From Escherichia phage phiHAO78-1, in the sequence record PP197160.1: a stretch of 43,930 nucleotides of DNA; one strand, given 5' to 3'. Under the pieces are notes generated by a model. That model saw only the letters and a program-made list of their open reading frames with translations, was not told where the DNA came from and searched no databases. Shown here in pieces: positions 2,739-3,370 of this stretch. The translations under genes were made by a program, and so were the position numbers. How positions within the stretch are numbered: position 1 is the stretch's first letter; every line of letters begins with the position of its first letter.

Positions 2739-2973
2739 ATTTAATAGCCCCCTTACGTGCGTGCTCTTCTAGGAGCTTGTACGTGCGCCGTTTGTAGTAC
2801 GCATTCCACGCCAGGGTTAGCACTGCACATACCGTTGCAGTGATGAAGCTGATAACACTCCAGTCCCAACTCATTAGCTCTGCCAACCAGCCTCCTGAGA
2901 CTGTAGCGCCAGTAACTGCTGCACCTGCCCGGGTAGCGAGATCTGCCCCAACTACGTCTCCTACTTTAATCAT
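2722..2973 (-). CDS. Holin, pinholin-like
   Basis: 83 aa with two hydrophobic segments (first weakly hydrophobic, second WSVISFITATVCAVLTLAW) and a charged C-terminus; lies immediately upstream of the SAR endolysin and overlaps its start. Confidence 0.6.
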   Translation of the reverse strand: MIKVGDVVGADLATRAGAAVTGATVSGGWLAELMSWDWSVISFITATVCAVLTLAWNAYYKRRTYKLLEEHARKGAIKYEFKD

Positions 2974-3370
2974 CCTGTTGACCTTTCTTCTTGAACAGCT
3001 TACGAATCACCAGAATGATCACTAGGAAGACCAGAGGAATGCTGGCCCCAGCTAATCCGGCGAGGATAAGACTGTAACTATCATTGTTAACTACCTGTAG
3101 GCGCTCTGCCTGGATTGTGCCTGTACTAATAGTCTGCACTTGCTTCTTGCTAGAAGTATCCAGGGTACCTACGTTAGAATCCTGTACATCGGTTTTGTTG
3201 GTGGTGCTGGAGTCCACCTTATTATTCAGCCCGAGCATCTGCTTAGTATTCTCAGCACCAACCTGAGCAGATACTTCCGGCTTAGAACCAACTAAGCCGG
3301 TAAGTGCAGAGGTCGCTGAGCAACCAGTCAGAGTAACCACGAGCAGTAACCCAGCGACTAGTTTACGCAT
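2966..3370 (-). CDS. Candidate unimolecular spanin (lipoprotein with C-terminal transmembrane domain)
   Basis: N-terminal signal peptide with lipobox LTGC (MRKLVAGLLLVVTLTGCSATS) and a C-terminal hydrophobic helix followed by basic residues (LILAGLAGASIPLVFLVIILVIRKLFKKK); sits in the lysis cluster. Confidence 0.55.
   Translation of the reverse strand: MRKLVAGLLLVVTLTGCSATSALTGLVGSKPEVSAQVGAENTKQMLGLNNKVDSSTTNKTDVQDSNVGTLDTSSKKQVQTISTGTIQAERLQVVNNDSYSLILAGLAGASIPLVFLVIILVIRKLFKKKGQQDD

Follow-up and report, generated by a model that had tools for sequence, protein, structure and literature searches.

A Predicted Unimolecular Spanin of the T1 gp11 Family in the Lysis Cassette of the Drulisvirus Escherichia phage phiHAO78-1

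Introduction

Our initial question was whether a single 134-residue protein, encoded at positions 2966..3370 of the minus strand, takes the place of an Rz/Rz1 spanin pair in the lysis cassette of Escherichia phage phiHAO78-1 (PP197160.1). A first-pass annotation of this locus had proposed a unimolecular spanin (u-spanin) of the phage T1 gp11 type. The stretch of DNA that we analyzed as a whole (43.9 kb, hereafter the window, to which all coordinates refer) is the complete genome of a Drulisvirus, a KP34-like podovirus of the Autographiviridae, and its genes lie on the minus strand throughout. Over most of its length phiHAO78-1 shares 91–96% DNA identity with Escherichia phages ZH5, AV102, and Minorna, Klebsiella phage KPV811, and Shigella phage SFN6B. 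An exact 76-nt repeat, which opens with a long poly-C run, is common to both window ends (19..94 and 43855..43930) and appears to be either an overlap left by circularization of the assembly or a portion of the terminal redundancy of a complete ∼43.85-kb Drulisvirus genome.

Among u-spanins, gp11 of phage T1 serves as the prototype (Summer et al. 2007, cited by Kongari et al. 2018, PMC6139136); it complements the lambda Rz/Rz1 lysis defect (Fig. 10 of Kongari et al. 2018, PMC6139136). The gp11 family includes proteins from KP34 (gp54), F19, NTUH-K2044-K1-1, phiKDA1, and LIMElight (Table 5 of the same study), and the cassettes of nearly all members also encode a pinholin along with a SAR endolysin (Kongari et al. 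2018, PMC6139136). When expressed alone, the T1 spanin is strongly bactericidal to E. coli, Klebsiella, Acinetobacter, and Pseudomonas (2024 study, PMC10954549). For the proposed genus Kp34likevirus, a cassette of "unimolecular spanin, holin and endolysin" in that order has been described as a hallmark, and KP34 gp54 has been named as its u-spanin (Eriksson et al. 2015, PMC4411677). The u-spanin of KP34-like phages is thus already known, published, and annotated for Drulisvirus.

Results

The ORF at 2966..3370 (-) is real, starts with ATG, and encodes 134 amino acids arranged as MRKLVAGLLLVVTLTGC/SATSALTGLVGSKPEVSAQVGAENTKQ...NNDSYSLILAGLAGASIPLVFLVIILVIRKLFKKKGQQDD. Its N terminus (MRKLVAGLLLVVTLTGC) fits strict lipoprotein patterns within the first 17 residues, in which an n-region containing both R and K leads into an h-region of 12 residues and then into the lipobox LTGC. 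The corresponding signal peptidase II signal peptide (3320..3370 (-), with the Cys-17 codon at 3320-3322) is predicted from these patterns and from Pfam LPAM_1, whose score of 20.1 bits lies exactly at threshold (cut-off 20). Cys-17 is the sole cysteine of the protein; it is followed by a serine in the +2 position and by a Cys-free middle part of ∼85 residues. Using Kyte-Doolittle means in 19-residue windows to detect transmembrane domains (TMDs), we located a C-terminal hydrophobic peak at residues 104–122 (mean 2.67) and predict a transmembrane helix at residues ∼100–122 (3005..3073 (-)) as the inner-membrane anchor. The predicted cytoplasmic tail that follows the TMD (RKLFKKKGQQDD, 2969..3004 (-)) has five basic residues first and an acidic end, in line with a positive-inside orientation. 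The combination of lipobox, C-terminal transmembrane helix, and basic tail that the first-pass annotation had recognized in this ORF is thus reproduced by pattern matches, by LPAM_1, and by hydropathy.

Along its whole length, the protein aligns with PHROG 1804 ("Rz-like spanin", E 1.5e-50). It shares 95% sequence identity with KP34 gp54, again over the full length (both proteins have 134 residues, and none of the seven substitutions falls within the lipobox), and 42% with T1 gp11 (53/126 residues, E 4e-27), in an alignment that extends from the lipobox across the periplasmic region and reaches the TMD and tail. Clustering of spanin families by Kongari et al. (2018) requires 40% identity or more across no less than 40% of the length; with T1 gp11 the ORF reaches 42% over 126 of its 134 residues, and with KP34 gp54 95% over the full length. 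Public assemblies already contain an identical protein (P0001), and among the matches listed the database homologues are mostly at least 96% identical. The homologue from Minorna (QBP07055.1) is labelled "unimolecular spanin", and records of other close relatives read "U-spanin", "putative spanin", or "Rz-like spanin". The assignment to the T1 gp11 type, originally drawn from topology, is hence backed by the identities to gp11 and gp54, and judging from its sequence, 2966..3370 very probably encodes a u-spanin of the T1 gp11 family and would thereby supply this Drulisvirus phage with its third lysis function.

We aligned 11 sequences, comprising the window protein, its homologues from KP34, phiKDA1, Zoomie, BF25/12, Pseudomonas phage C171, and usur (Autographiviridae), those from the Drexlerviridae T1, damhaus, and Salmonella phage 36, and one from Klebsiella phage RCIP0092. 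The record of RCIP0092 names no family, and its cassette order is T1-like. The lipobox residues Leu-14, Gly-16, and Cys-17 are invariant in 11/11 aligned sequences, and so are the columns Pro-31, Ala-35, Gln-36, Gly-38, Ala-39, Glu-40, Asn-41, Lys-43, and Gln-44. The resulting block, P31-x3-A-Q-x-G-A-E-N-x-K-Q44, is unchanged from T1-like siphoviruses to KP34-like podoviruses, and the motif AQxGAENxKQ is found in many family representatives. In phiHAO78-1 this most conserved periplasmic segment reads P31-x3-AQVGAENTKQ44 (3239..3280 (-)) and lies ∼14 residues past the cysteine predicted to be lipidated. The +2 residue is Ser or Ala in all 11 homologues, without the Asp that would interfere with outer-membrane sorting. 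The periplasmic part measures 81–103 residues and contains no Cys in any of them; absence of periplasmic Cys has been reported for every u-spanin (Kongari et al. 2018, PMC6139136). A C-terminal hydrophobic segment with a Kyte-Doolittle mean of 1.9–3.0 is likewise present throughout (11/11), with a sequence that is not conserved, and 3–6 Lys/Arg residues come directly after the TMD in each case.

Searching 1.84 billion 50%-identity representatives exhaustively with HMMER, we obtained only 49 clusters at E ≤ 0.001. Lipobox and C-terminal TMD are both kept in 35 of the 39 full-length-like cluster representatives. Two of the four exceptions are without a TMD after an apparent frameshift, one ends just before the TMD, and the fourth has a good TMD followed by a C-terminal tail that is longer than the 30-residue limit used in the family count. 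Both anchors are therefore under selection family-wide, as a membrane-bridging function predicts. Mis-annotation of u-spanins has been noted previously (Kongari et al. 2018, PMC6139136), and Salmonella phage 36 provides one example: its spanin homologue (KR296690.1, L008 1453..1842) carries the annotation "putative bdr repeat protein", the assigned start codon excludes the signal peptide, and the full ORF begins 27 nt further upstream (MKRKLLAIMMCIALSGC...).

A single-sequence AlphaFold2 model of the spanin has a mean pLDDT of 57.6 and contains a signal helix (residues 2–27), a short helix over the conserved motif (residues 37–44), and a helix that includes the TMD (residues 96–129). Only the last of these reaches pLDDT values around 70–80. 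Residues 28–95 are mostly below 50, without confident structure or strands, and the helix at 37–44 is the only periplasmic stretch that this low-confidence model draws as helical. For the family, a periplasmic domain consisting of a short helix followed by at least four β-strands has been reported (Kongari et al. 2018, PMC6139136). A profile search of the PDB with the family alignment returned nothing relevant and no solved relative (the best hit is a ribosomal protein at E 0.52).

The single helix at residues 2–27 is compatible with a protein whose N-terminal segment stays uncleaved and unlipidated, and which would then be a two-TM inner-membrane protein that modulates holin timing, for example an antiholin. 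The Kyte-Doolittle mean for residues 4–27 exceeds 1.6, the T1 record states "contains two transmembrane domains", and "two transmembrane domains" is also the wording used by Eriksson et al. (2015, PMC4411677). However, the h-region itself is variable but closes with an invariant L-x-G-C, which indicates selection on the lipobox, and the ∼12 residues that precede the Cys are too short for a stable TMD. In addition, gp11 stayed functional when its lipobox was changed to AWAC, in an assay with AWAS as the no-Cys control (PMC6139136, Fig. 10 legend). We regard a two-TM holin modulator as very unlikely, and retain the lipoprotein signal expected of a u-spanin.

We scanned the whole 43.9-kb window, in six frames and from all start codons, with a strict lipobox pattern, and found three matching ORFs. 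One of them, 5560..5742 on the non-coding strand, is antisense to the terminase gene, and a Cys/Arg-rich second one (14875..15072, coding strand) runs out-of-frame inside a 792-aa ORF (14156..16534). Only 2966..3370 is a non-overlapped coding-strand ORF and has a C-terminal TMD. No other lipobox ORF is embedded in or overlaps the cassette genes (2136-3942), which agrees with the earlier observation that the cassette lacks an embedded Rz1-like lipoprotein ORF. We could also not detect a coding-strand ORF in the window that has the N-terminal TMD and coiled-coil periplasmic domain of an i-spanin. When the three lysis genes are set aside, N-terminal TMDs on the coding strand are confined to two mini-proteins of 54 aa (27116..27280) and 68 aa (28883..29089), which are too short as i-spanins. 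A hidden Rz/Rz1 pair is ruled out by the six-frame lipobox scan together with the TMD scan of all coding-strand ORFs, and the separate i-spanin/o-spanin pair that the first-pass annotation had envisaged as evidence against a u-spanin is absent from the window. The two mini-proteins, both encoded on the minus strand in the early/middle region, are themselves predicted membrane proteins with one N-terminal TMD (54 aa) and 2–3 TMDs (68 aa), respectively.

The 134-residue protein might still represent the o-spanin half of a pair whose i-spanin partner was overlooked. It shows a weak, sub-threshold match to the o-spanin-type family NCBIfam NF037952 ("spanin2 family", 20 bits versus a cut-off of 80), and 7 of the 11 homologues match this model at E ≤ 0.1. 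The match ("spanin2_3") covers residues 8–73 in the N-terminal half but is lost upon removal of the signal peptide: the mature domain alone gives none, and the signal-peptide part alone gives 12 bits. Most of the signal therefore stems from a generic lipoprotein signal sequence, and we discount this signal-peptide-dependent match as evidence of o-spanin descent. The protein moreover has its own inner-membrane anchor, and no coding-strand ORF in the window combines an N-terminal TMD with a usefully long periplasmic domain. It is also without the periplasmic Cys that is near-ubiquitous in two-component spanins, where it has been attributed to covalent homodimer linkage (Kongari et al. 2018, PMC6139136). 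We thus give an o-spanin half next to no chance and keep the assignment as a u-spanin. The likeness to NF037952 might alternatively be a trace of common ancestry, in which case T1-type u-spanins would derive from an o-spanin that gained a C-terminal anchor. This scenario appears unlikely, and Kongari et al. (2018, PMC6139136) call an o-spanin origin of u-spanins speculative, similarity being undetectable.

In coding-strand order, the lysis region starts with the large terminase gene TerL (3942..5798 (-)), followed by two conserved small ORFs without assigned function, one of 124 aa (3568..3942 (-), PHROG 7128) and one of 60 aa that is homologous to KP34 gp53 (3370..3552 (-), PHROG 7375). The u-spanin gene (2966..3370 (-), 134 codons plus stop), orthologous to KP34 gp54 and homologous to T1 gp11, comes next and precedes the genes for an 83-aa holin (2722..2973 (-)), a 200-aa SAR endolysin (2136..2738 (-)), and a 644-aa tailspike (193..2127 (-), Tail_spike_N domain, PHROG 4217), the final gene. 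A terminator-like hairpin with a T-rich tail (174..188 (-)) is found directly after the tailspike stop codon. The cassette had been placed between the terminase and a terminal tailspike gene; the tailspike is indeed the last gene, but the cassette does not abut the terminase, since the 124-aa and 60-aa ORFs separate the latter from the spanin. We could not detect terminator-like sites in the intergenic gaps between terminase and tailspike, which suggests co-transcription of lysis and late genes. Neighboring genes overlap by 8 nt (spanin stop and holin start) and by 17 nt (holin and endolysin), and the stop codon of the 60-aa ORF overlaps the spanin start in a shared TAATG, by which the two are translationally coupled.

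The holin matches Pfam Phage_holin_2_1 (PF04971, the P21 S pinholin family) with 28.9 bits against a cut-off of 26, as well as the PHROG 20 holin family (E 1e-16), and is a candidate S21-type pinholin. The endolysin matches Pfam Phage_lysozyme (PF00959, E 9.5e-21) and contains a Gly/Ala-rich hydrophobic N-terminal segment (residues 7–25) and the E-x8-D-x5-T triad (E29-x8-D38-x5-T44) typical of SAR endolysins. It is thus of the SAR type, with a predicted release from the membrane. That the spanin keeps the company of a pinholin-like holin and a SAR endolysin, as noted at the outset, is therefore corroborated by profile matches to both neighbors. We also considered the 60-aa ORF (3370..3552) as a lysis regulator and rejected it: it has no TMD, and its homologue g53 in phage fHe-Kpn01 has been flagged as particle-associated by LC-MS/MS, together with g52, the homologue of the 124-aa ORF (PMC7291057). 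A lysis function is improbable for the 60-aa ORF. In phiKDA1, Zoomie, and usur, a similarly sized ORF (183–189 nt) immediately precedes the spanin gene.

Superinfection exclusion by receptor blocking is known for T5 Llp and for the Cor proteins of T1-like and phi80 phages, and an outer-membrane lipoprotein with such a different job could adjoin the lysis genes by chance. A lipoprotein signal is the best-defined feature of the 134-residue protein, and in fHe-Kpn01 the orthologue g54 was identified by LC-MS/MS of purified particle preparations, with a flag as particle-associated that the holin lacks (PMC7291057, Table S2), rather than being shown to act in lysis. The orthologous protein is therefore made, and its detection is likely explained by membrane debris that co-purifies with the particles. 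Our literature search for experimental work on Drulisvirus spanins otherwise returned in silico descriptions only; the g54 detection is the only experimental datum found, and it is mute on function. A role in exclusion is at odds with the full-length homology to T1 gp11, whose spanin function has been shown by complementation, and would make the conserved C-terminal TMD needless. In addition, the gene never lies outside the lysis cassette, whichever of the two phage families or two gene orders is considered, and the phiHAO78-1 genome would otherwise be left without any spanin. An exclusion lipoprotein consequently has a very slim chance of being correct, and the u-spanin remains our preferred reading.

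The tailspike gene at the end of the late region has a distinct pattern of matches: its DNA (193..2127) matches solely Klebsiella phage Hope and Shigella phage SFN6B, and the remaining genome matches many Drulisviruses. The tailspike is a swapped receptor-binding module, which may indicate the host serotype.

Discussion

In lipoprotein biogenesis, precursors are exported by Sec, lipidated on a Cys, cleaved by signal peptidase II, and transferred to the outer membrane by the Lol system, unless an Asp is present at the +2 position. The phiHAO78-1 spanin precursor would accordingly be exported by Sec, lipidated on Cys-17, and cleaved by signal peptidase II, and because its +2 residue is not Asp, the lipidated Cys-17 end would undergo Lol-dependent transfer to the outer membrane. 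The C-terminal helix (residues ∼100–122) would stay anchored in the inner membrane, leaving the basic tail on the cytoplasmic side. Given a lipidated outer-membrane end and an inner-membrane helix, the ∼85-residue Cys-free part in between would cross the periplasm through the peptidoglycan mesh and tie both membranes together. The pinholin would then depolarize the membrane, allowing release of the SAR endolysin and degradation of the wall. With the wall gone, the spanins would be free to move and to change conformation or collapse, and would disrupt the outer membrane, probably by fusion with the inner membrane, so that virions are released. For the phiHAO78-1 protein, we infer processing, sorting, and the fusion step; the fusion model for gp11 was put forward by Kongari et al. 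(2018, PMC6139136), who stress that biochemical data are still absent.

Comparison with KP34 gp54 and the Drulisvirus orthologues (Minorna QBP07055.1 and fHe-Kpn01 g54) reveals the same lipobox LTGC and the same TMD. Drulisvirus relatives also share the gene order TerL, two small ORFs, spanin, holin, endolysin, and tailspike, whereas the phiHAO78-1 tailspike module is unlike that of most of them. T1 gp11 has in common with the phiHAO78-1 spanin the lipobox L-[ST]-G-C, the +2 Ser, a ∼85-residue Cys-free part with AQVGAENTKQ, a C-terminal TMD, and a basic tail, but the TMD sequences are unrelated, and gp11 alone has been experimentally tested. The T1 cassette also contains a pinholin and a SAR endolysin, both distantly related to those of phiHAO78-1: the endolysins (gp12 in T1) are 28% identical, including the N-terminal SAR region (E 3e-13), and the holins have only a short C-terminal stretch in common (E 7e-6). 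With 42% identity, the spanin is thus the best-conserved lysis gene between both phage families. The order of the cassette is holin-endolysin-spanin in T1, damhaus, and RCIP0092, and the spanin gene of Salmonella phage 36 is also located after the endolysin, whereas phiHAO78-1 and all Autographiviridae relatives compared have the order spanin-holin-endolysin. This difference in the KP34-like phages has already been published (Eriksson et al. 2015, PMC4411677).

Two-component spanins, such as Rz/Rz1 of lambda and of phiKMV, have the same presumed task, disruption of the outer membrane after wall degradation, and follow the same principle of linking the inner membrane to a lipid-anchored outer-membrane end. 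The phiKMV-like podoviruses are related to KP34-like phages. In contrast to these systems, phiHAO78-1 relies on one polypeptide and has no embedded or overlapping lipoprotein gene, no coiled-coil i-spanin, and no periplasmic Cys, and without its signal peptide the spanin shows no significant sequence similarity to two-component spanins.

Taken together, our analysis confirms a complete three-step lysis system in phiHAO78-1, with no Rz/Rz1 pair missing. The protein has been described in KP34-like phages since 2015, and the finding is therefore correct but ordinary; the phiHAO78-1 copy has little significance past its correct annotation and adds nothing new. The right label is "unimolecular spanin (T1 gp11 family)", and many database records still read "hypothetical protein" or "Rz-like spanin". 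For work on the u-spanin mechanism, including structure and fusion assays, the very compact and well-conserved T1/KP34 family (49 clusters at 50% identity) offers a reasonable model.
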